This document shows positions 26,203 through 45,234 of a stretch of 64,000 nt of DNA, in pieces (position 1 is the stretch's first letter; the number at the start of each line of letters is the position of its first letter). The stretch spans positions 64,001-128,000 of the forward strand of contig CAWFAK010000016.1 of NCBI GenBank assembly GCA_963813715.1. Reading direction: 5' to 3'. The notes beneath the pieces are model-generated. The model did not search any database, had not been told where the DNA came from, and was given only the letters and a program-made list of their open reading frames with translations. Source of the stretch: an uncultured Planctomycetaceae bacterium (GTDB taxonomy: Bacteria; Planctomycetota; Planctomycetia; Planctomycetales; Planctomycetaceae). A program made the translations under genes and the position numbers.

Positions 26203-27515
26203 ATGAGTTCTTCCGCGATGGTCAGCCCAGCTCGCCCCGCTCGGCGGTTTGCCTTCGATTACGGCTGGGTGGTGGTCGTGCTCGCGGCCCTGGCGATGAC
26301 GGCCACGCTTCCCGGGCGGACGCACGGACTGGGACTGATCACCGAGCCGTTGCTGGCCGATCTGGGCATCGAGCGGCACGCTGTTCGGGCGGATCAATCT
26401 CGTCACCTGCTTGCTGGGAACGGCGTTTTGTCTGCCGGCCGGCTGGATGCTCGATCGCTTCGGCATTCGCATCGCCACCTCCTGCACGGTGTTGGTGCTC
26501 GCGATTTCCGTCATCGGCATGGCGACGGCCCACACGGTGGTGGCGCTCACCTTGTGGCTGGTGCTCGTCCGCGGCGTTGGGCAAAGCGCCCTGTCGATCG
26601 TGAGCATGGCGGCCGTCGGCAAATGGTTTCGGGGACGCCGCTTGGGCGTCGCCATGGGGGTCTACGCCGTTCTGCTCACCTTCGGGTTCATTGGCAGCGT
26701 CGTCTGGCTGGGCTCGGCCGTGGAAAAATCCGGCTGGCGGACGGCCTGGAGCCAGCTCGGTTGGATCCTGTTGCTCGGCATGGTGCCTCTCAGTTTGTTG
26801 TGCGCGGAATCCGGCGGCCGGGGCGGACGACGCCGAGCGATTCTTCGTTTCCCATGTCGGCCGATTTGCCGCCCGTCGACTTTTCCTTCGGCCAGGCGAT
26901 TCGCACGCCGGCCTTTTGGGTATTCGCCGTGGGAGCGGGAGCGTTCAACCTCGTCTGGTCGGCGCTCACGCTGTTCAACGAGTCGATACTTAAAGAGCAC
27001 GGGTTCGATGCGCACGCGGCCATCAGCGTGATGGCAATGCTCGTCGGCACCGGCCTGCTCTCGAACCTCGTGGGCGGCGCCTTGGTCCGCCGCCGTCGAA
27101 TCGGCTGGCTGCTGGGCGCCGGGCTGGCGACGCTGGCGATCGCTCTCATTTACTTTCCGCGGGTGACGACCAGCACGGCCTTGATGTCGTATGCCGCGGG
27201 CATCGGCATCGCGGGGGGACTGGTGACGGTCGTCTTCTTTGCGGCCTGGAGCAGCCTGTTCGGCCGGCGCAAGTCGGCCGCATCCAGGGACTGGCTCAGC
27301 TGATCACGGTCGTCGCGTCGGCGATCGGTCCCGATCTGATGGCCGAGGGCCGCGCACTCTCCACCTCCTACTCGCCGATGTTTTACGTGGCAGCAGCGGC
27401 GACGGGCGCGCTCGCGCTCGCGGCCTGTTTCGTCCCGGTTCCGTCGCTTGGGGCGACGACGAGCCCAATCGCCGACGCGCCCCTCGCCTCCGTCGCCGCG
27501 ACGCAAAAGGCCTAA
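26203..27515 (+). CDS. MFS transporter (split by about three frameshifts)
   Basis: Multiple transmembrane helices and MFS motif A (GWMLDRFGIR). Segments lie in ORFs 26203..27303 and 26411..27031, plus a final frame ending at TAA 27515. Confidence 0.82.
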
Positions 27516-27697
27516 GGGACGTGCGCCGGTCGCGCAACGGCCGAACGTTGTTGCGTGCGCCGCCGCGTCGAACTACGATTCGCCTAGACGAACTGGCATT
27601 TCATTCGGCCGCCCGATTCGACTCTTTGCGGCCGCTCAGTTTCTCGCTGGGTTATCTGAGTCTGGATTCTTCTTGGTCGTTTTTTGAGAGACCTCGC

Positions 27698-29516
27698 ATG
27701 TCTGTCGAAACCATTCCCCTTGCCGAAGCTCCGCAGCCGCCCCGATCGAAGAAGTTGCGGCTCTGGCCCGCGATTCCGTTTGTGGTGTTGATGCTGGCCG
27801 CCAAGGCAGCGCAGCCCCTCTTCCTGCAGCAGGCCGCGCCGAACGTTACGGTCTTCATGGTGGTCGTGTTTGGTCCGGTGGTCTGCTGCTTCATCCTGCT
27901 GCTGTGGTGGCTGTTCTTCACCCGTGCGCCGTGGAGCGATCGCCTGATCGGCCTGGCGGGGGCGGTTGTGGGAAGTCTTGATCGCCTGGTTCGTCGCCGA
28001 TCCTTCGATTCACGGCCAGGCGTCCATCTTCTACGTACTTCCGGACGCCGCTCTGGCGTTCACCGTGGCCTTCCTGATTCTCTCGCGATGGGGCGCGCGG
28101 CTGGGGACGGTGACGGCTCTCGTCGCCGGAGCCCTCGCGCTCGGCTACTGGGACACTGTGCGGTTCGACGGCATGTGGGGTAATTTCAAGGCGACCATGC
28201 ACTGGCGCTGGGAAAAGACTCCCGAGCAAGAGTTCCTGGCGGAACGCAATGCCAAGTCGGCCCCCACGGCGGCAAACGCCGAGCCGTTGGGGAAGGTCCT
28301 GTGGTCACAGTTTCGCGGGCCGAAGCGCGACAGCGTGGCGCCGGGCGTCGTGCTCGACGTCGACTGGAAGGCCCACGCTCCGAAGCAAATCTGGAAGCGA
28401 AAGGTCGGCCCGGGTTGGTCGTCGTTCAGCGTGGCGGGCAACCGGCTCTTCACGCAAGAGCAGCGCGGCGAAAACGAAGACGTCGTGTGCTACGACGCCA
28501 AGACTGGCGAGGAGCGCTGGATCAACGAGACCAAGGCCCGCTTCGACGAGGCGATGGGAGGCGCCGGGCCGCGGGCCACACCCACGCTGGCCGGCGGACT
28601 GCTCTACGTGCAGGGGGCCGCGGGGCTCTTGCAGTGTCTCGATCCGCTCACGGGAGCGGTCAAGTGGAAGCGCGATTTGATGCAAGAGGCCAACCGGAAG
28701 AAGACGCCCATCTGGGGCTATTCCTCGTCTCCGTTAATCGTGGGCGACAAAGTCATCGCATACTCATCCGGCGACGAAGGCGAGAAGGGGATGCTCCTGG
28801 CGTTCGACGCCGCGACGGGCGAGCCGCGGTGGACGGCCACGGCCGGCAACAGCAGCTACAGCTCGCCGCAGTTGGCCAAGCTGGCCGGCCGCGAGGTCGT
28901 GCTGTTTTGGGGGCAGACCGGGCTCACCGCGGTCGACGCCCCAACGGGAAAGCCGGCTTGGAACTACGACTGGCTATTCCAGGGCTATCGCGTTGTCCAG
29001 CCGCTGCTCTTGAGCGAGACCTCGGTGTTGTTGGGCACCGGCATGGGTGAAGGCACGCGGCGGGTCGAGCTGGTCCCGGCCAAGGGAGCCGGCGAAGTGA
29101 AATTCGAGGACCGCTGGACCTCGCACGACATGAAGCCCGACTTCAACGACTTCGTGGCCTTCGACGGGGCGCTCTACGGGCTCGATCACAACATCCTCTG
29201 CTGCGTCGACCTGGCGACCGGCACCAAGAAGTGGAAAAACGGCCGCTACGGCAACGGCCAGATTCTGCTGCTGCCCGACGCGGGTCAGCTGCTCGTGCTG
29301 ACGGAACAGGGCGAGCTGGTGCTGATCCAGGCCAACCCGTCCAAGCTCGACGAAGTGGCGCGGGCAAAGGTGCTCGACGGCAAAACTTGGAATCATCCCG
29401 TGCTCGTCGGCAATCGGGTCTACGTCCGCAACGCCGAGGAAGCCGCCTGCTTCGAGGTGCCCCTGGCCAAACAAAGCACGGGCGACCCGGCCAAAGAGAA
29501 GCACCGGGAACTTTAA
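27698..29516 (+). CDS. Membrane-anchored PQQ-like beta-propeller protein (frameshift near 27965)
   Basis: N-terminal transmembrane helices, then WSQFRGPKRD, GPGWSSF, GPRATP and KTWNHPVL. Confidence 0.87.
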
Positions 29517-29537
29517 GCGAGAGTCGCCGACCGTGCG

Positions 29538-29741
29538 CTAGTGCCGTCGCGAGGGTGGGGGTGGTGTATCCCGCCACGGAGCGAGGATCTCATCCTCAGA
29601 CCGGGGAACCGTCGCCGTCAGTGCCGAACGGGGCACCGTCAGCACGGTGCCGCAGTCGTTGCACTTGCCGCTCTTGCCCGCGGCATCATCACTTGTCCGA
29701 ATGGCACGCCCGCACTTTGGGCAGGCAAACCTGATGGTCAT
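29538..29741 (-). CDS. Small zinc-ribbon protein or gene fragment
   Basis: MTIRFACPKCG...AGKSGKCNDCGTVLTVP, an N-terminal zinc-ribbon module usually attached to longer Planctomycete proteins. Confidence 0.6.
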   Translation of the reverse strand: MTIRFACPKCGRAIRTSDDAAGKSGKCNDCGTVLTVPRSALTATVPRSEDEILAPWRDTPPPPSRRH

Positions 29742-30057
29742 GGCCCGTGACCCTCTGGGATTGCGAACTGCGTCAGATTTCGAATTAACTTGCGAAGTCT
29801 AGCAAGACTCAGCATGGAGCTGATACGCCGGATTGGCAAGAGCCGCTGAATGAAACTCGCAAACTTTGCCGCCGATCCGCAGCTTGACGCGCTCGCAAAA
29901 TTTCGCGGGCACCGGAAAGAGGCTGACCGGCCCAGCTTTTGCATCACGACCGAGACCATGACCGAGAGCGAAATGATGCAGGACCAGCGTTGACGAAGTG
30001 TTCTCCGCCCGAAGATGATTCCGAGGCGGGCCAGCAACTCTTGAGCGTCGAACAGGC

Positions 30058-31225
30058 ATGGTCCGATTACGTGCAACGAATGGTGCTTCTGGTCAGTTGG
30101 CTATCGCTCCGACTCGCGCTCGGCTGCGCCATTTCGCGGATGCCGCGGCCACAATGGTGGGCTACAAAGTCCGCCGCGGGCTGGGAGTGTCGGCCCGCCA
30201 GCTAGCGGACGTGGCCGAGAAGACCTGGGAGATCGCCCCGGGCGTCGACGAGCCGCACGTTCCCCTCTACATTCCCGAGTCGCACTTCGGACGCATCGAA
30301 GCGCACGCTCCTCCGTACCAGCACCAGCCGGTTTCCAGCCTGCTGGCCGCCATCCGGCAGGAGCGCCATCGCGGCGGCGCGACGCGGGCTTATTTACTGC
30401 GCGACGCATTTCTGCTCGGCCAACGAATCTACTGTGGCCTTTACCAGGGCGATCTCTATTCAACGCTCGGCTGGCGCGCGTTGTGGCGTGCCAACACGGC
30501 GGAGATCGCCGAAGGCGTGATGGCGAGCACCTATTCCGGTGCGCGCTGGTTCGCCCACCTGCTCTACGACGAGTTCCCGCTGCAGGAATTGGCGTCGACT
30601 CTGGGAAACTCCGTCGGCCACGTGCGTCCGGCCTATCCGCACGAACCCGGCTGGCGCGGTGCTGGGCGTGCCGGCTCCTCCCGCCTACGCGGCCGTGCGA
30701 GCGCGAAAACTAATTTGGGTCGACGACTGCGGCCAGAACCTTGCCAAGCGCAGTCGCTACCAATCGCTGCGTTCGCGCGTCACCGGCTTTGCCAACGGCC
30801 ACGATCGCGTCTTCCTCCGCCGCAATCCGTTTCCCGTGGGGGAAGTCCGCCGGATCGTCAACGGTGCGGAGGTGGAAGACCGTCTCGTGCGCGAGGGATT
30901 TCATATCGTCGACACGGGGCAGGTCACCGTCGACGAAATGCTCACTCGCTGCATGAACGCGTCGATGGTCGTCAGTGTCGAGGGCTCGCACGCCGCCCCC
31001 GCGTACTACTTTGCCCGCCGCGGCGCGTGTCTGTTATCCCTTTATCCGCCGCGCCGCGTCAGCGTGTTGATGCCGCGGTTGGCGAGCTTTTACGGGCAAG
31101 TCGGCGCGATGTTCGTCGGAGAGCCGTCCGCGGAAGGCGACTCGGATTTCTACGTCAATCCCGACGAACTGATCCGCGAGATCGATCGCGCGGCCGAATT
31201 TGCCGGCCGGCAAAGCCTGCTTTAG
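30058..31225 (+). CDS. Glycosyltransferase family 61 (DUF563)-like protein (frameshift near 30655)
   Basis: FAHLLYDE, VFLRR...RRIVNGAEVE...GF...VVSVEGSH pattern resembling GT61. Confidence 0.7.
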
Positions 31226-31234
31226 AGCGGGCGG

Positions 31235-31939
31235 CTACTGGATTGGAATCCGCGACAAGAGCTGCTGCGCCACGCCGGCAATTCGAGTCCCCGGCACGTT
31301 ATTGATCACGCGCTGTAGCAGGGCCGCCGCCTCAGGATAGATGCCGGCCCGAATCAGGTTGCGGGCGTTGGACACGAGGCCACTGTATTGCCGCTGCGCC
31401 GCCGTGTCTGGATTGAGGTATCCGGACGAAAGGGCCAGACCGAGCACCGGATACCCACCCAGGAATTGGAGGTTGCTCGCCGCCGTCTGGTTTGCGGCCT
31501 GGTTTGCGTTCGACGAGTTCGTCGTGTTGGCCGACGGCAGGGACGCCGCGTTCGACTTGGTGTTCGTGGTGGACGACGCGCCCGTGCTTCCGCTGATGCT
31601 CCCATGAGACACCAGCGACGAAGGCGGCGTGAGCACCGGACCAAAGGCCTCGTCGGCCAAACTCTTGGTGCTACCGCTGCTGCTCGAGCGAGTCGACTTG
31701 CTGGAGGCCGTCTTGCCGCTGGCCGTTCCCGGTGCGCTGCGGTTGTAACTGCCGACTTGGGTGCCGTCGCGGCGCGTATAGCTGCGCACGTGAACGCTGC
31801 CACCGGAGTTGCTGCCGTAACTGCCTCCGCCACTGAAGCCACTGCTGCGCCCACCGCGCGAGATGCCGCCGCGGCCGTAAGAACTCGAGGGGGCAAAGAG
31901 AGCAAGCGAGACGATTAGAACCGCTGACCAAGCGCGCAT
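31235..31939 (-). CDS. Secreted Gly/Ser-rich hypothetical protein
   Basis: Signal peptide, VHVRSYTRRDGTQVGSYNRS motif, low-complexity linker and C-terminal TPR-like hairpin. Confidence 0.8.
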   Translation of the reverse strand: MRAWSAVLIVSLALFAPSSSYGRGGISRGGRSSGFSGGGSYGSNSGGSVHVRSYTRRDGTQVGSYNRSAPGTASGKTASSKSTRSSSSGSTKSLADEAFGPVLTPPSSLVSHGSISGSTGASSTTNTKSNAASLPSANTTNSSNANQAANQTAASNLQFLGGYPVLGLALSSGYLNPDTAAQRQYSGLVSNARNLIRAGIYPEAAALLQRVINNVPGTRIAGVAQQLLSRIPIQ

Positions 31940-32244
31940 GGCCTTCTCCTTCAGCGAAACTCCGCGGCTGACTTAAGTGTGCGCCTGGGCGAGCCAGAAC
32001 ACAAGCGAAACCAGCGGCGGGCGTTGCGTTAAGGGCCAACTCGCGCGCGTCGAAGATTAAGACGGCGAAAGGGACAGCAGTCCCACCGCGACCCGAATGC
32101 CCCGTTTCCTCGGGGGTTGAACAAACTGCCGTCGCCGATCAGGGCACGCCAGACCAGCGGCGCGAGCCGGGCCTGCCGTCCGCACCGAACTCGAATTCGA
32201 TCGCGTCCTGCGCGGCTTCCGCTGCCCTCGGCCCGGCCACCTTG

Positions 32245-32730
32245 TTAGGCGGCTTGTTTCGTGCAGGTCGGCGCGCTTTCGCCAGTGCAGGGATCACACG
32301 TGGAGCTGCACCCATGGCTACACGTGTCGTTGTTGCCACACGACTCCGACTTGTCGCCGCACGGGTCACACTTGCTGGTGCAGGAAGGAGCGCATTCATT
32401 GCCGCACGTGTTGTTGCATGGGTCGCACTTGCTGAAGGTCGAGAAGCACGCCGCGATGGCCTGCAATTCGCATTCGGTCGTGTTGCCGCCACAGGGGCTG
32501 CACTTGGTCGAGCACGTTGGCGTGCTACAGTGAGACGTGCTGCAGACAGTGGGCGCGCACTTGCTCGACTGACACGCGGTTGCGGCGCAGGGGACCACGC
32601 AGCTTGCCGAGAGCAGCAACCGATCTTCCAACGACTCGAACGCGGACACCGGACGCAACGGCCATCCCGACTGATGAGAGTGGCGGCGGGAGTTGCGTCG
32701 GCGCAGTGAACCAAAAAGGCGGCGACTCAT
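32245..32730 (-). CDS. Cys-rich small protein with Planctomycete LExRxLL-type leader
   Basis: Arg-rich N-terminus, FESLEDRLLLSA, then 24 Cys in about 119 residues with four x-x-(K/T)-C-(S/D)-P-C repeats. GGAGG lies upstream of ATG 32730. Confidence 0.8.
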   Translation of the reverse strand: MSRRLFGSLRRRNSRRHSHQSGWPLRPVSAFESLEDRLLLSASCVVPCAATACQSSKCAPTVCSTSHCSTPTCSTKCSPCGGNTTECELQAIAACFSTFSKCDPCNNTCGNECAPSCTSKCDPCGDKSESCGNNDTCSHGCSSTCDPCTGESAPTCTKQAA

Positions 32731-32855
32731 GTTGAAGGCCCTCCAATAAAAGTACGCGGCGAACTTGAAGTTGAACGACCTCGTTCGCAAGCGACGAACG
32801 GATTCGGGGAAATCGACGGTAACCGGAACAAGCCCGCGCAATCAACAACTATTCG

Positions 32856-33228
32856 GTCAAATTCAATGCCCAGTCCGGGAACGCTAGGCGGACGGACACG
32901 GTCTCCAGCATCATCGCGGCGATCGGCAAGAAAGCCGGCGTGAAGGTCTCGGAGCGACGCGGCAAGGTGACGTACGCGAGCGCTCACGACCTCCGCCGCT
33001 GTTTCGGCACCCGCTGAGTGCGGCTCGTGATGCCGGCGGTCCTACAGCGGCTGATGCGTCACGAAGACATCCAGACCACGATGACCTACTACGCCGACCT
33101 CGACGCCGAATCGACCGCCGACGCTGTGTGGAGCGCCTTTGCTAACACTTTCGCTAACAGTGGGCAGGCGCAAGAAAAACGCCGTCAGGCGAATCGACAC
33201 AAAGTGCTGTCGCTTAAGGCGTTTCAAA
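32856..33228 (+). pseudogene. Tyrosine recombinase/integrase C-terminal remnant
   Basis: In-frame translation ...IGKKAGVKV...SAHDLRRCFGTR*VRLVMPAVLQRLMRHEDIQTTMTYY has HxLR, His and catalytic Tyr. TGA at 33015-33017; N-terminal two-thirds absent. Confidence 0.88.
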
Positions 33229-33301
<73 letters not shown>

Positions 33302-33701
33302 AATCGGAGCCGAATCGTGGTGCGACTCCGCATTTGGCGCATTTTCATAGCTGACAGCCCGCCGCGTGTCAAAGGAATTGCCCCGACAGCGATTGCGCCG
33401 AGTGCCCGAGGCCGCCTTTGGTGCGATTAGGCAAGCGGAACGGGCCCGCAACCGCGAACTGGGCCGGTCCGTGGATTCCCGCAAAAAGAAATTGGAATTT
33501 CGCCAACTTTTGCCACAAAATCACGCACACTCTCCAAAAAACGGGGCTTCTGTTGGCGGCGAACACTGGCCACGACCGCGACGGTGGAAAACCTGGCTCG
33601 GTGGCTTGCGTTCGCCTGGTCGACGGAACCCTTTAAAAACACTCGAGAATTCGCTCGCTGCGGCGACGCGATTGGACCATTCAGCAGAAGGGGCTTGAGT
33701 C

Positions 33702-34418
33702 ATGCGATATCTGCACCTGGTTGGATTGGCGGTGGTCATCGGTTTGGCAGTGCAAGTCCCGGCATTCGCCCGCGGCGGTCATGGCGGGCACGGCGGTCAC
33801 CGATCGCACGGACACGGCGGGCACGGGCATCACGCGCATGCACATGGCGCGCATTCCCATCACACGGCCGCGCAGGGCGCCCATCACGGGGCGCGGCGAG
33901 GTCGGGCCTTCGCTCATCACCGCGGCATCCACAATCGACACTTTGCCGGGCATCACGCCGCCTGGGCTCATCACTACGCGAATCATTGGCACAACTGGGG
34001 TGCCCACGGTGGTTGGGGATATCACCACGGCTGGGGTTACAACCATGGTTGGGGTTGGGGCGGAGGCGGGTGGAATTGGTACGGAGGTGGCGTAAATGTT
34101 GTCGGTCCCAGTGCTCCGACATACGTCAATCCCGGTTACGTCGGGCCGGCGACCGGTCCCGGCGTGGTCGTCGTGCCTCCAGTCACGACGCAGATGCCGG
34201 CCTTCAGTTCAATCGTCGGCACGATCCGCACGATTAATGGACCAGCCGTCTCGGTCGTGACCGAAGAGGGAGATCCCATCACCGTCGATGCGACACCCAA
34301 CACGACGGTCGTCCTCAACAGTCAACAGGCGACGCTGGCCGATCTGCGACCGTCGGATCGAGTCAAGGTGCGCTACGACCAGAACCTGAAGGCGCTGACG
34401 TTGGTGGCTCTGAGGTAA
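33702..34418 (+). CDS. Secreted His/Gly/Trp-rich protein with C-terminal small beta-barrel (OB-like) domain
   Basis: Signal peptide ending AFA, GGH/HH repeats, GWGY repeats, and C-terminal GTIRTING...TLADLRPSDRVKVRY. Confidence 0.82.
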   Translation: MRYLHLVGLAVVIGLAVQVPAFARGGHGGHGGHRSHGHGGHGHHAHAHGAHSHHTAAQGAHHGARRGRAFAHHRGIHNRHFAGHHAAWAHHYANHWHNWGAHGGWGYHHGWGYNHGWGWGGGGWNWYGGGVNVVGPSAPTYVNPGYVGPATGPGVVVVPPVTTQMPAFSSIVGTIRTINGPAVSVVTEEGDPITVDATPNTTVVLNSQQATLADLRPSDRVKVRYDQNLKALTLVALR

Positions 34419-37143: not shown

Positions 37144-38274
37144 TCAATTCGGCCATGCCAAGGCCCGGCGGGCGATGTCGAAGGCGGCTTGCGGCTTGCC
37201 GATGCGGCGGGCGTTCTCTTTGAGCCGGGCGAGCCGCGACGGGTCTTCCAAAAGCGGCGTGAGCTTGTGGCCGAGCGTCGCCAGGTTGTTGATCTTCACG
37301 GCGGCCCCGTTTTCGAGCAGAAAATCGCTATTGCGACTCTCCTGTCCGGGAATCGGATTAACCACGGCCATCGCCGCGCCGCGGGCCAGAATTTCCGACG
37401 TCGTCAAACCGCCCGGCTTGGAAACGACGATGTCCGCGACGGCCATCAGCTCGTCGATCTGATCGGTAAAGCCCAGGATCTTCGCGCGATGCCGCTCGGG
37501 CACCTCGACCTGCTCGAGTTGATGTTTGGCCGTTTCGTTGCGGCCGGCGATGACGACGACTTCAATCGGCGTCTCGATCGCCAGGATGCCGCGAAAGATC
37601 TCCTCGATCGGGCCGACGCCGAAACCGCCGGAGATTTGCACGATGATCGGACGATCGCCGGCCAGGCCTTGCCGCGCCAGGCACTCGGCCCGATCCTTCG
37701 GCTGACTGAAGACCGGGTGGATGGGGATGCCCGTCACGCTGATGTCGCCGGCCGGCACGCCCCAGTGCCGCAGGTATGCGGCCCCTTCGCTCGTCGCGGC
37801 GAAATAATGGTCGCACGGCTGATTGACCCAGAGGCGATGCGTCTCGAAGTCGGTGGTGACGGTCAAGTGCGGCGTCGCCAGCTTCCCTTGTTTTTGCAGC
37901 GAGGCGATCAACTCGGCCGGCAAAAAGTGCGTGTTGACGATCACGTCCCACGGCTCGGACTTGAGGAATCGCAAGAACGGTCGCAGGTTGACTTTTTCCG
38001 CCGCGAGCCGCAGGCGATCCGTCGTCCGCCGCGGCGAAACCGGGCGATCCATCAGGTCGTAAAAGTACCCGAGTACGTACGGCGCTTTGTTGACGAGGTC
38101 GAGGTACGCCTTCGCATAGACCCGCCGAAAGGCGGCGTTCGTCAACTCGAGCACGTCGACATTCTTGACGACGGCTTGCGGATCGAGCTGCCGGAGCGCC
38201 AGCTCGACAGCCTGCGCCGCCCTCAAGTGCCCGGCGCCCACGGATGCCGACAATACCAACACGCGTTTGGACAT
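37144..38274 (-). CDS. MGDG synthase/UgtP-like diacylglycerol glycosyltransferase (GT28)
   Basis: SASVGAGHLRAAQA, THF, VTTD, TGIPI, GGFG, KPGGLTTSE and PIPGQESRN. Confidence 0.9.
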   Translation of the reverse strand: MSKRVLVLSASVGAGHLRAAQAVELALRQLDPQAVVKNVDVLELTNAAFRRVYAKAYLDLVNKAPYVLGYFYDLMDRPVSPRRTTDRLRLAAEKVNLRPFLRFLKSEPWDVIVNTHFLPAELIASLQKQGKLATPHLTVTTDFETHRLWVNQPCDHYFAATSEGAAYLRHWGVPAGDISVTGIPIHPVFSQPKDRAECLARQGLAGDRPIIVQISGGFGVGPIEEIFRGILAIETPIEVVVIAGRNETAKHQLEQVEVPERHRAKILGFTDQIDELMAVADIVVSKPGGLTTSEILARGAAMAVVNPIPGQESRNSDFLLENGAAVKINNLATLGHKLTPLLEDPSRLARLKENARRIGKPQAAFDIARRALAWPN

Positions 38275-38387
38275 CGCTTAGCCTCCCGGAGTTTGTCTCA
38301 CCCAGGAATCGAGGCGTTCGCCACGCCAATTTATAACGCGAATCGGGCGCAGCCTGCGCGACAAAGAGCGGCGCTCTCAAAACTCTT

Positions 38388-38428
38388 CCTCCCTCTCCCC
38401 GTGCGGCAGAGGGGTTGGGGGTGAGGGG
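38388..38428. repeat. REP-like element (CCCTCTCCCC...GAGGG...GGGGTGAGGG type)
   Basis: CCTCCCTCTCCCCGTGCGGCAGAGGGGTTGGGGGTGAGGGG, intergenic between the thiolase and glycosyltransferase genes. Confidence 0.6.
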
Positions 38429-38454
38429 CGCCCAGCGTGAATGTCCGGCAGCGA

Positions 38455-39646
38455 TCAGCCGCACAGCTCGAACAAGCCCGCCGCTCCCTGTCCGCCGCCG
38501 ATGCACATCGTCACCACGCCGTAGCGGGCTTTGCGGCGTTGCATTTCGTTGGCGATCACGCCGACCAGGCGGGCGCCGGTCATGCCGAACGGGTGGCCGA
38601 TGGCGATCGAGCCGCCGTTGACGTTGAGCTTTTCCGGATCGATGCCCAGCTTGTCGCGGCAATAGATCACCTGCACGGCGAAGGCCTCGTTCAATTCCCA
38701 GAGGCCAATGTCGGCGACTTTGAGACCGTGCCGCGAGAGCAGCTTGGGGACGGCAAAGACGGGACCGATGCCCATTTCGTCCGGGTCGCAGCCGGCGACG
38801 ACGAAGCCGCGGAAGGCGACTTTCGGCTTGAGGCCGAGCGAACGGGCCTTGTCGGCCGACATCAACAGTGCGACTGAGGCACCGTCGGACAGCTGCGACG
38901 AATTGCCGGCCGTCACGGTTCCTTTGCCGCTCTCCTTGTCGAAGTGCGGCTTGAGGGCCAAAAGTCCTTCGAGCGTCGTGTCGGGGCGGTTGCACTCGTC
39001 CTGCGAAATGTCGCACTCTTCTTCGCTGACGACCTTGCCCGTCGTTTTGTCGAGAATGCCTTTGCGGACGTGCATCGGCGCGATCTCCGCCGCCAGGATG
39101 CCCTCTTTCTGCGCGGGCCGTCCGCAACTGGCTGGAGAGCGAGTACTCGTCCTGCACTTGCCGGCCGATGTTGTAGCGCTTGGCGACGACCTCCGCCGTG
39201 TCCCCCATCACCATGTAGATGCCCGGGCAATGTTCTTTGATCCATGGGTTTTCGTCGCGGTTGCCGCGCGGAATCTGCGTGATGCTTTCGACGCCGCCGC
39301 CGATCGCCACGTCGGCCCCTTCGTGCATGATTTCGTGGGCGGCAATCGCGATCGCCTGCAGTCCGGACGAGCAGAAGCGATTCACGGTCGCACCGGCAAC
39401 CGACGTCGGCAGTCCGGCGCGGATGGCCGCCACGCGGGCGATGTTCATCCCTTGCTGGCCTTCGGGATAGCCGCAGCCGATCACCACGTCTTCGATCTCG
39501 GCCGGATTGAGCTTGGGGGCCCGTTTGAGCACCGCCTGAATGCAGTGGGCGACCATGTCGTCCGGCCGCGTCAGGTTGAACGAGCCGCGGAACGATTTCG
39601 CCAGGGGCGTTCGCAGACTTTCGACAACGACGGCTTCACGTGCCAC
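38455..39646 (-). CDS. Thiolase (acetyl-CoA C-acyltransferase), frameshift near 39105
   Basis: NRFCSSGLQA, NSSQLSDGA, ELNEAFA, GHPFGMTG and MCIGGGQG. GGAG lies before GTG 39646. Confidence 0.92.
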
Positions 39647-39797
39647 GGGGCGTGCTCCCATCTGCCAGAGGTCGATCGTCTGCCAGAGATCGATCGATCG
39701 GAAGTGCTATGCTGGAAGGCGGGCCGCGCTAGCCCGCTCGAGATTCCAGGAAACTGCCGCGAAACGCGACGCCCTAAGCATAACCGAAAAAAAGTTG

Positions 39798-40869
39798 ATG
39801 AGTGAACCGTCGGCAGAACGCGGCACGATCGACGGGGTGTTGCGTGCGTTTCGCAGCGTGCTGGGCTTGGATCTGCTGGGCGAGCACGCCGATTGCCGGC
39901 CGGTCGATCGGCCGGGCTTCAGCGGCGCTTTCGTCGCCCGCGTGGAGACGCCGAGCGGAGCGTTCTGTTTGCGAGGCTGGTCCCAGGGAGCCGTCGGCGA
40001 ACGAATTCTCGCGCTGCACGAGTTTCTGGCGCACGTCCGCTCCCGAGGTGTCGACTATGTGGCGGTGCCGTTCGCCGCCGAGCACGGGGAGACCCTCGTC
40101 GAGGTGGCGTGGCGACTGTGGCAGGTCGAGCCCTGGTTGCCAGGCTCCGCCGATTTCTGGTCACGGCCGAGCGACGCACGGCTGGCGGCCGCGCTCGGGG
40201 CCTTGGCGCAGTTTTCATCAAGCGTCCCGCGGATTCGAGCCGGTCGTTCATAGTCGATCACACCTTGGCCCCGCGGCCGACGGAATCGCGCCGACGGTGC
40301 GCGAACGCATCGAGCGGATCGAACGGTGGAGTCCGCAGCGGCTGACGGAGGTCCGCTCGCACTTGCGCCGACTGCCCGCGAACATTGAACGTCGAACGGC
40401 TGCCGCGGAGCGGATCTTGCGGGTGTTCGAGCGGGCCGCGCCGTCGATCGCCGGCGAGCTGAGCCTCGCCGCGCAAATGCCCGTGCCGCTGCAGCCCTGC
40501 CTGCGCGACGTTTGGCACGATCACGTGCTCTTTAGCGGCGACGAAGTGACGGGCCTCATCGATCCGTCGGCCGCCCGCACGGACACAGTCGCGGCCGATC
40601 TTTCGCGACTCGTCGGCAGCCTGATCGCCGACGATCGCGCCGCCTGGGAGCGGGCGCTGGCCGCTTATCAAGCGGTGCGACCGTTGTCGGCGGCCGAAAG
40701 CGTGCTGGTCAGCGTGCTCGATCGCAGCGGCGTTCTGTTGTCCGGGATGGCCTGGCTCGAGCGGCCGGAATTCTGGCAGGAGCAGCCGCCGGCTCTCGCG
40801 ACGCGACTTTGCGAACGTCTCGAGCGCATCGCCGCGCGGGCCGACGTGCTTGCGCGGTCAATCGCGTGA
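39798..40869 (+). CDS. APH/homoserine-kinase-type-II-like phosphotransferase (frameshift near 40215)
   Basis: GFSGA P-loop-like motif, VEPWLPG, PCLRDVWHDHVLF, GLID and DLSRL. Confidence 0.8.
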
Positions 40870-41745
40870 GGCGAGTACCAGATCCAGCGACGGCTCGAAG
40901 CCGAGCATCGGCGTTTGCAGCACCGACCTGGCGAACGAGTTGCGGAGGGAAACATCGCGCGGCCGCGGCGCCCGACCGGTGATCTGGGCCGGCGGCCGCG
41001 GTTGCACGAGTCCGGGAGAATAGCCAAACCGCTCGGCAATCCGCCGCGTGAGCGTCACTCGGTCGAGCGTGTCGCTGCCGGCGAGGTGAATTGTTCCCGC
41101 GAGCGAACCGGCCGCCAGCTCGAGGAGTGCCTGGCCCAAAGTGACGACATCGATCGGCGTGCGCAGTTCTTCCGGGGGGACCACAATCGTCTGCCCGGCC
41201 CGCAACATGGGGATCGTGCGCTCCAGGAACGAGTTCCCGCCTCCCAGCGGTCCGAAACCCATCACCACCGCGATCCTCACGACGATCGAGCCGGCAACCG
41301 CCGCGACGATTCCTTCGCTCTCCGCCTTCGTTCGCGCGTACTCGTTGATCGGCGAAGGCGGATCGGCCTCGACGTAGTTGCCCCGTTCGCCGTCGAAAAC
41401 ATTGTCGGTGGAGATATAAACCAGCCGCGCCCCGCTCCGCGAGCAGCTGTCGGCCACGGCCTGCGTGAGGCCGACGTTCACGGCCCGCGCGACGTCCGGA
41501 TGGCGTTCGCAGAAGTCGATATCGGCAATCGCCGCCGCGTGAATGACGACGTCCGGCGCAATTTCCGCGAGCGTGCGCCGGACTTCATCCGGTTGCTTCA
41601 GGTCGAGCGTGTGCCAGTGCAGCCCGGTACGCTGCGCCAAGGGCGCTTTTCCGGAGAGCGCATGCAGCTCCCAATGGCCCGGCGCCTGGTGGATGACGCT
41701 GCCGGCCACGAATCCGCCGCCGCCCGTAATCGCGCATGTTTGCAT
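40858..41745 (-). CDS. RmlD-like extended SDR oxidoreductase
   Basis: ITGGGGFVAG, HAAA, YISTDNVFDG, YARTK (YxxxK) and RPRDVSL. This is the C-terminal part of ORF 40858..45234. Confidence 0.88.
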   Translation of the reverse strand: MQTCAITGGGGFVAGSVIHQAPGHWELHALSGKAPLAQRTGLHWHTLDLKQPDEVRRTLAEIAPDVVIHAAAIADIDFCERHPDVARAVNVGLTQAVADSCSRSGARLVYISTDNVFDGERGNYVEADPPSPINEYARTKAESEGIVAAVAGSIVVRIAVVMGFGPLGGGNSFLERTIPMLRAGQTIVVPPEELRTPIDVVTLGQALLELAAGSLAGTIHLAGSDTLDRVTLTRRIAERFGYSPGLVQPRPPAQITGRAPRPRDVSLRNSFARSVLQTPMLGFEPSLDLVLASRD

Positions 41746-41759
41746 CGCGGTCCCGCGGT

Positions 41760-44700
41760 TTACTGCGGCGGAATCAACAGCACCGACGCAACCTTGGCCA
41801 GCGTCCCCTTGAGCGGGTCGGCCGCGCGGAGGGCGAACCGCTGCTTGCCCGCCTTGAGCGGCACCTTGCCGATTTCGACCGGGAAGAAGGTCGTCCAGTT
41901 CTTGCCAGTGCCTTCCACGCGCGAGGTGATCCGCTTGTCGGGCGAGTCGAACTGGAACGAATTGCCCGCCGACTCGTTGTGACAGGAGTACATCACGCTG
42001 ACGGTGTAGAGCCCGGGCTTTTGGATGTCGACCGTCCACGCGGCCGAGTCGTTGGGGCTGTGCCATTCGGCGAGCACCGGCTCGTCGCGCCGCTTCTCCA
42101 GCACGAGCGTGTTGCCATAGATCTCGCAATTCGAGGCGTCGAGCGAGAGCGTGCCGTCGGGTTGCGCCGTGACGAGCGCCGGCTGGTTGCCCGGGAAGAC
42201 TTTGCGGCTGGGCCCGGTCGACCCGATATAGGCCATGATGTCGGCCAGGTCCTGCGGCTTGACGTCCTTTTCGAGTCCTTCGGGCATCAGCGATTTGCCC
42301 GTGCTGGCGAGCATTTCCAATTCGCCGCGGAGCAACGTGGTTTGTTTGCCCTCCTGCTGCAACAGGGTGATACTGCTGCCCGTTTCGGCCGCCAGGATGC
42401 CCGTGTATTGCCGCCCCTGCGTGGTGACGGCCGAGTAGACGTCGTACTTCTGCTCGACGGCCCGGTTGGGATCGAGAATGGCGACGATCAGGGCCTGTGG
42501 CGACTTGTCGGTGAGCGCGACCAGGTCCGGGCCGATCGAGTGGCCCACGCTGTTGAGTCGATGGCAGATCGTGCAGGTCTTCTCGAATCGCTCGCGGCCA
42601 TGCTTCGGATCGGCCGACAGCGTGAGGGCCGATTGATACTTGCGGATGACCGCCAGGCGGTCGGCATCGACCGAGTGCAGAATCTTCTTCGCCCGATCGG
42701 CCAGCGCGTGGTTCTTGAGCGCCATCAGCCGCTGGCTCCGCGGCACGTCGACTTCGCCGCCGCGGATTTCCTTCTTCTCGATTCGATCCAAGAGCGCGGA
42801 CGTCCATTCGTCGCGGACCAGGAGCACGTCGAGAATGCTCGACCGCAGCGCCGGGCTGACGCCCCGCCAGCGTCCGAGCAACGTGTTGGCGACCTGCGGC
42901 TGCGGCAGTTTGCCGAGCGCCGCAACGATTCCCTCCTGCAGCGACGCCGGCGTTTGCGGCGACAGCAGTTCGCCCAACGCGTCGACATCCGCCGAGTCGT
43001 GCGGAGTCAGGCCGCGGCCCAGAATTTGAACGGCGGCCAGTCGCGAGTCGAGCGGTGCCGTGCTCATCGGCCGAAGTCGTCCGTGCGGCATCCGCGACGT
43101 GCTGCAACTGTTGCAGGAGCGCCGGGCCGCGACCCGACAGGCGGGTGGCGAACTGCCCGATGCCCACGTGCTGCCGGTCGAGACCGTCGAGCAGCGCGGC
43201 GACGGCGGACAAGTCGGCCGCACTGTAAGCACCCTGCGCGGACGGGGACATCGAGCCGATGAATTCTTCGACGACCGCGTCGTTGCCATACGCGGTCGCC
43301 ATCGTCATCAGGTTGCGATACAGCTCAGGCGGCGGCGTCGAGCCCTTGGACGAATGCGCCACCGTGGCGGCGACCCGCGCCAGGTTGCCCTTGGTGATCG
43401 AGCTCATCGCGGCGGCAAACAAATACGGTTCCTGCTGATTGGCCAGGGCGAAGCGGCCGATCGCGTCGCCCGACTGCGGATCGTCCCACTCGCCCAGCGT
43501 GCAGGCGACTTGCAGGCGAACCTGCGGATCTTCGTCGCCGATCAGCTCCGCAATCTTCGGGCCCAGCTCGGGGGCCGACTTGAGCAGACCTTCGCACAAC
43601 CGCACGGCGTTACGGCGAACGCCCGGGTGTTTGTCGTGTAGAGCCGTTTCGAGAAGTGCCGGCGTGAGCCCGCCCAAGCCATCGAGCGTGCAGAGAGCCT
43701 GCAAGCGCGTCTCGGGCCGGGAGTTTTCGCTCGCCATCTTCGTCAGCGCGGGGATGACCGATTTGTCGCCGCGTTCGACGAGCATGAACTGCACCAAATC
43801 TCGCTGCCATCCGCCGGGACTGTCGAGCGCGTCGACCAGTTCGCTCGGCGTCATCTTGGCGAGATTTGGCCAGGGCCGGGCCGGCTTATCTTCGGGCACG
43901 ATACGATAGATGCGGCCCATGTTGTCTCCGGCGCGGGGATTGATGCGGGCCAGCCGATCAGCCGTGATCCATTTCGGGTGCTCGATGATCATGCGATACA
44001 TGTCGACGACCCACAGCGCGCCGTCGGGACCATTCTTGACGTCGACCGGCCGCGACCAGTTGTCGGCCGACGCATAAAACTCCGAGTTCAGCTCGCTCGG
44101 CGCGCGGAAGCCGGCGAACGTTGCCCCCAGCGGCTTGAGCACGCGGCGAGTCAGCAGATCGTGGACGGGCTCGCACATGAAGGCGTTGCCCCGATACTCC
44201 TCGCCGAGCAAATCGTCCCGATAAATCACGGGGCTGCACGCCGAAGTGACGCGGTTCGCGCTCTCCGGATGGTTGAAACGCCGCAGCGTGCGGCTGATCG
44301 GGTAGAGGTGGTCCGGATCTTCCTTCGGCACCATCACGACCGGCTCGGGCGGCGCGACGAACGGGTTGCGGCTGACGTAGCGATCCTGCAGCGGCGTGTT
44401 GAGCAACAGCTCGCTGTTCTGATTGGAGAAGTAGTTGCCCCAGTCGTCGCGGGTGCGTCCCTGCTGCGTGCCGCCGCCGCTCTCCAACTCGAACAGGTGC
44501 CGATCGGGATCCATGCGGAAGTCGCGGATGCCCAGCTTGACTTCGAGTCCCGGCTTGTCGGGGCAATGAACCGTGCCGCCGAGCAGCCCGTTGGCGCCGT
44601 GAACCCAGTTGTCGAGACCGTAACTCAGGCTGTTCATGCGGGCCTGCCAGTTGCGGGAATCGAAGCCGGTGAAGACCACTTTGCGGATGTCGGCCTTGCC

Positions 44701-45234
44701 GTCGCCGTCGGTGTCCTCGGCATAAATGATGTCGGGAGCCGCGCAGACCAGCACCCCCTTCTTCCAGACGGTGATGCCGTTGGGAAAGTGGACGTGGTCG
44801 AGAAAGACGGTCGACTTGTCGAACTTGCCGTCGCCGTGCGTGCTCTCGAGCAGACGCACGCGGCCGGCCGGCTGGTAGTCGCCTTTGACGCCGTAGGGGT
44901 AGTCGTACATTTCGGCCACCCAGAGCTTGCCGTCCGGTCCGAAATCGATGGCCACGGGCGAAGAGATCAACGGCTCGGCCGCGACCAGTTCGACCTTCAG
45001 CCCCTTGGGGACGTGAATCGCCTTGAGCGATTGCTCGGGCGTCATCGCCGGCGGGAAATCGTCGCGCGGAGCAGCCTTTGCCCGACCGCCAACGATCGTG
45101 GCGAGCAGGGCCAACCCAAACAGGCTGGCGCGCCAGCGACGTTTCGCGGAGATCGTCACGAGTGAGGGAGCGGTGGGCGAGGCGGGGACCGAGGTCGGGG
45201 AAGTCATGGCGGTTCTTGCGTCTCGAGAAGTCAA
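41760..45234 (-). CDS. PVC-type membrane-bound dehydrogenase / heme-binding CxxCH protein (frameshift near 43065)
   Basis: LVAAEPLISSPVAIDFGPDGKLWVAEM propeller, HEAT repeats, CTICH, GPDL, SLMPEGLE and a C-terminal beta-sandwich. Confidence 0.9.

Follow-up and report, generated by a model that had tools for sequence, protein, structure and literature searches.

Our analysis of the window, the 64,000-nucleotide stretch of an uncultured Planctomycetaceae genome (G000) considered here, identified a small gene next to a tRNA-Thr gene, encoding a protein in which an Arg-rich LExRxLL leader precedes a Cys-rich cargo (Table 1). The leader scores above the cut-off of NCBIfam family NF012209 (LEPR-XLL; 19.3 bits, cut-off 17) and below that of Pfam family PF07595 (11.2, cut-off 25.5), the latter being matched by 11 of 16 family members at E-values up to 1. 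It contains 6-11 Arg and Lys residues in all 11 members counted and, as judged from the 16-member alignment, lacks a hydrophobic Sec core. The 119 amino acids downstream of FESLEDRLLLSA (32640-32605) hold all 24 Cys of the protein (20.2%) together with 29% Ser plus Thr, and the cargo begins with a Cys ladder with spacings of 3, 4, 4, 4, 4, and 4. These values bear out the first-pass annotation, which had described a 161 amino acid ORF with an Arg-rich LExRxLL leader and 24 Cys, a remainder of about 119 residues with about 20% Cys and rich in Ser/Thr, and a regular C-x4-C ladder. The four CxPC repeats that it had listed (STKCSPC, FSKCDPC, TSKCDPC, and SSTCDPC) are all present, starting at residues 74, 99, 118, and 142, but they are scattered instead of forming a tandem array and are a feature of one subclade (4-7 CxPC motifs in the three members of the subclade of the window protein, 0-1 in the remaining 13 of the 16), not a hallmark of the family.

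Similarity searches recognized little beyond the leader. The window protein had no Pfam match at E-values up to 0.1 and only the sub-threshold PF07595 match at E-values up to 1, and the cargos of the 16 members had no Pfam match at E-values up to 1. A search of the cargo against PDB sequences gave a single match (E-value 0.58), which was disregarded, and the ESM Atlas gave low-score matches or none. The AlphaFold model (pLDDT 43.7, low confidence), whose sole helix spans residues 88-97, is unreliable.

Table 1. Features of the locus (window coordinates).
Feature	Position	Strand	Basis
Islet, 1,111 bp: gene, promoter-like motif, integrase remnant	32115..33225	.	Absent from G002
Gene for 161 amino acid LExRxLL-leader Cys-rich protein	32245..32730	-	ORF, run contigs, orthologs, dN/dS
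Cargo, 121 amino acids, 24 spaced Cys, Ser/Thr/Gly/Pro-rich, low complexity	32248..32610	-	
Predicted amphipathic helix, residues about 86-102	32425..32475	-	Alignment; AlphaFold helix
Arg-rich leader, residues 1-40, LExRxLL at its end	32611..32730	-	NF012209 match, alignment
Shine-Dalgarno-like GGAGG	32740..32744	-	Supports ATG at 32730
Predicted promoter-like TTGATT-N18-TACCGT, sigma-70 type	32816..32845	-	Relaxed pattern upstream
Broken 3' tyrosine integrase remnant, internal stop	32871..33107	+	Integrase identity, weak PF00589 match
tRNA-Thr(CGT), integration hotspot in genus	33229..33301	-	G007, G008, G011 comparison

Since many frameshifts occur elsewhere in the assembly, it was a real possibility at the outset that the ORF was a fragment of a longer gene, a doubt that the first-pass annotation had also raised. 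The ORF is free of indels and substitutions in contigs from all four sequencing runs compared, and the independent orthologs P0002, P0003, and L045 share the C-terminus of the window protein, which rules out a frameshifted fragment of a giant gene. The database record P0004 represents this gene read through two frame switches, after residue 60. As weaker evidence, a search with the 16-member alignment returned no longer form among 8000 scored candidates. A chance reading frame is ruled out by the dN/dS estimates, the retention of Cys, and the Shine-Dalgarno-like motif (see below). The gene is real and intact. As for the rest of the assembly, several genes of the window (26203-31305 and 37562-45234) appear to be split by frameshifts, as is typical of unpolished long-read assemblies, and short ORF lengths elsewhere in the genome should be read with care on that account.

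Pairwise dN/dS estimates (Nei-Gojobori, own script, small counts) ranged from 0.14 to 0.58 in seven pairs, and from 0.18 to 0.62 in the leader. The window gene and L045 gave a value of 0.58; between these two proteins 24 of 24 Cys are kept, compared with 68 of 96 other cargo residues. By these estimates the gene is under purifying selection, with its Cys preferentially kept. A Shine-Dalgarno-like motif precedes the start codon at 11 of 11 loci, and all 11 upstream regions contain the promoter-like pattern TTG(A/C)(T/G)T-N17/18-TANNNT 65-115 bases before the start, which occurs in 0-1.3% of shuffles and, elsewhere in the genome, at 7 of 624 genes (a stricter pattern: 7 of 11 loci, 0 of 624 other genes); the significance of these counts is overstated, because these regions also served to derive the pattern and some of the loci are closely related and nearly identical. 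A standard promoter scan placed the promoter-like motif below threshold, and a promoter-matrix scan detected no enrichment upstream of Cys-rich wall-type genes. Contigs of the RNA run X1 cover 31125-33302 and end at the 5' end of the tRNA, where three DNA runs continue; because X1 comes from one study, is represented by contigs only, and may be DNA, its coverage was not counted as expression. Five further RNA runs contain a fraction of 0.17-0.41 of the words.

The gene is present once per genome in nine of 12 genomes of the genus (G000, the genome analyzed here, G002, G003, G004, G005, G007, G009, G010, and G011). It was not found in G001, G006, and G008 (completeness 65, 87, and 86%); G000 itself is 83% complete. 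Protein searches for metagenomic members returned three matches with a single query and 14 with an alignment, and five were obtained among 1.84 billion representative proteins; the six clusters looked up were labeled as hypothetical protein or carried no name. Sixteen members were aligned, excluding P0002, P0004, P0007, P0008, P0010, P0011, and P0015 (frameshifted, N-terminally extended, or near-duplicate). Eight leader positions (E32, L34, E35, R37, L39, L40, S41, and A42) are invariant in all 16. The cargos comprise 84-146 amino acids with 13-28 Cys and average 18% Ser, 17.0% Cys, 10% Gly, and 1.8% Phe, Trp, and Tyr combined. Each member has one hydrophobic amphipathic stretch, of which there are three versions; in the window protein, the predicted helix carries every large hydrophobic residue of the cargo. 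Cargo identity across subclades is 30-43%, and the tree strongly supports the clade of the window protein and the G004/G005/G011 clade as separate.

Among 300 genomes of the bacterial family searched with alignment A1, with 12 candidates scored per genome, all matches outside the genus were to the leader only, in frames of at least 738 amino acids; this search missed the distant members of G004 and G005. A first DNA pattern was found in none of 400 genomes of the phylum, and a second in 14 genomes outside the genus out of 397; in none of these 14 did a credible gene encode a Cys-rich cargo. In viral contigs, none of 11 pattern matches was confirmed. Within the samples searched, the family was not found outside one uncultured Planctomycetaceae genus of soil, to which it appears to be confined. 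The first-pass annotation had left room for an ORF without homologs or for a member of a characterized family; the relatives from nine of 12 genus genomes match no characterized cargo family. The literature consulted on LEPR-XLL, PF07595, and RRE-M50-HlyD, which covers reports other than the 52 carriers of Supplementary Table 9 in PMC8567305, describes no small Cys-rich carrier. The family is real, undescribed, and restricted to the genus, combining a known leader with a new kind of cargo.

How unusual this cargo is can be seen from a motif scan of the genome, which identified 26 LExRxLL ORFs. The other 25 cargos (open frames of 148-1484 amino acids, some broken by frameshifts) contain 31 Cys in 19,800 amino acids (0.16%), against a background of 1.13% in 1,392 long ORFs, so that Cys is avoided about 7-fold in them, while the window cargo contains 19.8% Cys; a tiny Cys-ladder cargo is indeed atypical for this leader, as had been proposed at first sight. 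The spacing of the Cys is also biased. Among the 295 Cys of the 16 members there is no CxC (47.8 expected), CC occurs 18 times (48.4 expected) and CxxC 29 times (47.4 expected), and Cx6C occurs 77 times (45.8 expected). None of 2000 shuffles gave values as low, and the over-dispersion persists when the set is reduced to 10 less redundant members. Because the number of Cys varies between 13 and 28 and is odd in five of 16 members, the cargos have no fixed intramolecular disulfide framework.

The genome encodes further Cys-rich proteins, including three YTV genes (PF07639, nine matches), a family that the window protein does not match, and roughly a dozen low-complexity ORFs with many Cys, the majority of which seem by eye to encode signal peptides. 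These other proteins contain CC and CxC, and the Cys pattern of the window cargo is therefore not common to them. Low-complexity proteins with 19-82 Cys and repeats of the CCAPAP-, CGCGG-, or CCxxK-type are encoded at G000:C16:498319, C16:159062, C5:1372420, C12:281592, C8:90794, and C12:123357; signal peptides are apparent in most, and the product of C12:123357 (36 Cys in 212 amino acids) is without an evident one. Two DUF1559-type, prepilin-like proteins are Cys-rich as well (G000:C17:764704, plus strand, 38 Cys in 442 amino acids; G000:C16:222588, plus strand, 29 Cys in 436 amino acids), which suggests a general gain of Cys in extracytoplasmic proteins of the genus.

The gene lies within an islet that the sister genome G002 (92-93% identical) lacks: there, 37 bp replace 32115-33225, and the two genomes are collinear on both sides. 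Contigs of X1, X2, and X3 bridge the left junction, and contigs of X1 the right one. The integrase remnant of the islet is 58% identical to residues 306-383 of an intact 416 amino acid integrase at the same tRNA in G007, where a 15-kb element, accompanied by an att duplication of 46 bp, occupies tRNA-Thr; integrase sequence is also found at tRNA-Thr in G008 and G011. A search for att repeats in the window found none longer than 7 bp, with a 7-bp T-loop match at the left junction (32116-32122). The suspicion that the tRNA and integrase were incidental, raised by the missing att repeat, did not survive the finding that the site is empty in G002. The tRNA-Thr gene is a genuine integration site, as the first-pass annotation had read it, and in this strain the gene is what remains of the cargo of an integrative element that has decayed. 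Other members occupy other places: G002 carries a copy only 36-37% identical to that of the window, at a locus that holds transposase-like ORFs in the present genome, the G003 copy is part of a 3.0-kb inserted segment that this genome lacks, and the G011 copy is located about 600 bp behind tRNA-Val. The absence of the islet, together with members at different loci, indicates an accessory, relocating unit. The G007 element (L166-L167; G007:C167:10582-26055) is prophage-like, with its intact integrase at the tRNA-Thr site.

Several observations on these loci are recorded here in their own right. Directly downstream of the gene, 31235-31939 (minus strand) encodes a signal-peptide-like, Gly/Ser-rich protein, with a 12-bp in-frame insertion at 31826 that differs among runs; 33702-34418 (plus strand) encodes a signal-peptide-like N-terminus, a long His/Gly/Ala-rich stretch, Gly-Trp-Tyr repeats, and a weak DUF5666 C-terminus. 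A cluster of 32 tRNA genes on one strand within less than 5 kb (G000:C7:914718-919431) includes a second tRNA-Thr(CGT), and ARAGORN predicted a tRNA with the stop anticodon TTA at G000:C8:182792-182863, possibly a pseudogene or a sequencing error. In G003, G007, and G009, the divergently encoded neighbor of the studied gene is itself Cys-rich; a homologous relationship between the two was rejected (probability 0.09%). This second family (L005:1501-1887, minus strand; L006, L007, and L008-L014) carries no name and has a signal-peptide-like N-terminus and an all-beta domain, modeled by AlphaFold with a pLDDT of 80 and unmatched in the PDB at E-values up to 0.001, with about 5 to 35 Cys across homologs on one alignable scaffold. 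At the loci viewed, its gene lies upstream of one for a DUF1559 pilin-like protein; the family is present in nine of 61 genomes, none having been found in G000. In four genomes of the genus, an MNIO gene (PF05114; G000:C7:527000-529650; L115-L117) is preceded by a precursor gene whose product has a twin-arginine-like leader and a Cys-rich core.

The LEPR-XLL/Planc_extracel leader is reportedly due to Studholme et al. in 2004. Its motif is "thought to represent" an export signal, and in Tuwongella the proteins that carry it are enriched in the SDS-soluble envelope fraction, to which eight of the 20 detected were exclusive (PMC8567305); the relevant part of PMC10952558 lists PF07595 merely as a signal. 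The literature searched on Planctomycetes leaders, on RRE, M50, and HlyD, and on Cys-lacking type I substrates shows no export route for the LExRxLL leader. A type-I-like SecA_DEAD/GAF-HlyD/M50-HlyD module that includes HlyD has been described (Kamneva et al., 2015; PMC4452313), in a part of that paper that names no substrates, and the trio GAF-HlyD, HlyD, and M50-HlyD is encoded in this genome at C16:408221-413842 as a candidate exporter. It is unlinked to the studied gene; a different LExRxLL gene is located about 6 kb away from it, and the second SecA_DEAD gene maps to a separate contig. The N-terminus of the M50-HlyD protein contains a PqqD/RRE-like domain (G000:C16:410105-410443, minus strand; 17.2 bits, below the cut-off of 23.4), which was detected in all 12 genus genomes and in 24 of 121 genomes of the phylum. 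PqqD/RRE domains bind leader peptides. Three tandem TolC-family genes were noted at G000:C7:429695-434983, with like triplets in G003, G005, G009, and G010; by eye, no HlyD or M50 gene adjoins this cluster (C7:430-435 kb).

In comparison with known systems, the family shares with other LEPR-XLL/Planc_extracel proteins (NF012209, PF07595) the Arg-rich N-terminus, the lack of a hydrophobic core, and the E-x-L-E-x-R-x-L-L-S-A end of the leader, but differs in its cargo of 84-146 amino acids with 15-20% Cys and no recognized domain. The Cys-rich YTV proteins (PF07639), likewise predicted to be extracytoplasmic in the same phylum and candidates for a disulfide network, have a YTV repeat, CxC, and another leader, are much larger, and are class-wide rather than accessory and mobile. 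Disulfide-crosslinked structural proteins are known from elsewhere, among them chlamydial OmcA, the keratin-associated proteins, and the Cys-rich domains of minicollagens. Their Cys/Ser/Gly/Pro-rich low complexity and their CxPC and Cx3C spacings are alike to those of the family, a likeness of composition only. YTV proteins dominate planctomycete cell-wall preparations (PMC8567305), and their place in the wall is confirmed in PMC12673574.

Of the three functions offered by the first-pass annotation, a disulfide-crosslinked surface protein fits best, and the metallothionein-like chelator and the RiPP-like precursor have both lost ground. We consider it the leading possibility, at somewhat under an even chance, that the gene encodes a small accessory protein, probably exported to the surface, which oligomerizes and is cross-linked by disulfides into a coat or matrix. 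It would be transcribed from its own sigma-70-type promoter; the PqqD/RRE-like domain of M50-HlyD would read the leader, and the M50 protease would trim it. The chain may then pass unfolded and reduced through a HlyD/TolC-type conduit, a state of passage suggested by the near-absence of Cys from all other cargos. Outside, the helix might nucleate self-association or dock on the surface, and air oxidation would join the Cys of one chain to each other and to those of other chains, and perhaps to Sec-exported Cys-rich wall proteins. The above-cut-off, invariant leader, the retained and spaced Cys with their odd and variable counts, the Cys-rich YTV wall proteins, the HlyD cluster near an LExRxLL gene, and the genus-wide RRE-like domain all speak for such a cross-linking protein. 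Against it, the gene is accessory and found at different loci, unlike that of a core wall protein, its Cys pattern differs from that of the other Cys-rich proteins of the genome, the G002 copy of low identity sits elsewhere, dN/dS of the window's own pair is only 0.58, the AlphaFold model is no guide, the PqqD match is below its cut-off, and the second SecA_DEAD gene lies apart from the HlyD cluster. The Cys-free rule of the other cargos could equally mean that the window protein would be a poor substrate.

An exported thiol sink, in which a reduced cargo binds Cu(I), Ag, Cd, Hg, or Zn or quenches surface oxidants, metallothionein-like without being a metallothionein, ranks next and is, in our estimate, unlikely. 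The average composition of the cargos, rich in Cys and Ser and poor in aromatic residues, would suit it, as would a route that skips the periplasm and might deliver free thiols, and mobile, patchy genes kept after the decay of an element often serve stress tolerance; aerated soil, on the other hand, oxidizes surface thiols. Bacterial SmtA/BmtA (PF02069) and animal metallothioneins are also small and Ser/Gly-rich, with 15-20% Cys and few aromatic residues, but the family lacks their CxC, has few CC, a depletion extending to CxxC, and possesses an export leader and an amphipathic helix. None of the 16 members matched PF02069, which was over its cut-off in none of five genomes, and no metal regulator or efflux gene was recognized by eye as a conserved neighbor in the loci viewed. 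The genome also encodes, at C7:411981, a separate, putative copper-storage-like protein. A high Cys content as such may suffice for chelation, according to the part of PMC8476144 on this point.

We regard as less likely again a secreted defense or competition peptide, in which a disulfide-stabilized amphipathic helix would hit other microbes or mask a phage receptor. Its rapid split into three subclades whose helices differ, the distinct versions that sister genomes carry at separate loci, and its carriage by an integrative element speak for such a peptide, but variable, often odd Cys counts misfit a defined disulfide fold, the window cargo is net acidic (10 Asp plus Glu against 6 Lys plus Arg), the loci viewed show no conserved immunity-like neighbor, and each genome has a single copy. 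Below this in our ranking comes a leader that is vestigial, or a protein that is not exported at all, the product being a Cys-rich protein of the cytoplasm or a passenger of mobile DNA under weak selection. The 7-fold avoidance of Cys in other cargos, the closest-pair dN/dS, and the predicted status of its expression are in keeping with it; the eight invariant leader positions beside such divergent cargos, the leader dN/dS, and the promoter-like and Shine-Dalgarno-like motifs kept at all 11 loci despite differing neighborhoods argue against it. We rank last, as improbable, a RiPP precursor whose Cys and Ser/Thr would be modified in trans (lanthionine, ranthionine, or MNIO chemistry) behind an LExRxLL enzyme-binding leader. 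A conserved leader followed by a core rich in Cys and Ser/Thr, the RRE-like domain present in the genus, and the occurrence of MNIO and of SPASM enzymes in four of five genomes each would agree with this. LanC-like proteins, in contrast, were detected in one of five genomes, which is not the present, 83% complete one, and YcaO in none of five; the MNIO had its own adjacent Cys precursor at four of four loci viewed, one SPASM enzyme lies by eye within a PQQ-like cluster, and the same leader is carried by 25 Cys-poor proteins. No modifying enzyme adjoins the gene at the loci viewed, which for the window agrees with the first-pass annotation.

Returning to the cross-linked surface protein, a broader version of it, which we hold more loosely and consider rather doubtful, is that these mobile genes may encode small surface proteins of a new, self-curing class, in which the LExRxLL route would carry a reduced, unfolded, Cys-rich chain past the periplasm to form a disulfide polymer only outside the cell. 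If so, the near-complete avoidance of Cys in the LExRxLL pathway would be broken here, and a natural substrate of 161 residues would be at hand for dissecting the export machine. Catalogues have included the LExRxLL leader since 2004, and its export role is still described as "thought" in the relevant passage of PMC8567305; many known carriers are hard to clone because they are very large. With a small natural substrate that has its own promoter-like motif, the leader, its cleavage site, and the role of RRE-M50-HlyD become directly testable, and the 24 Cys would report on the route, as free thiols after export would mean that the periplasm was bypassed. If the protein does polymerize, it would be a mobile, lineage-specific addition to the long-noted Cys-rich envelope of planctomycetes.
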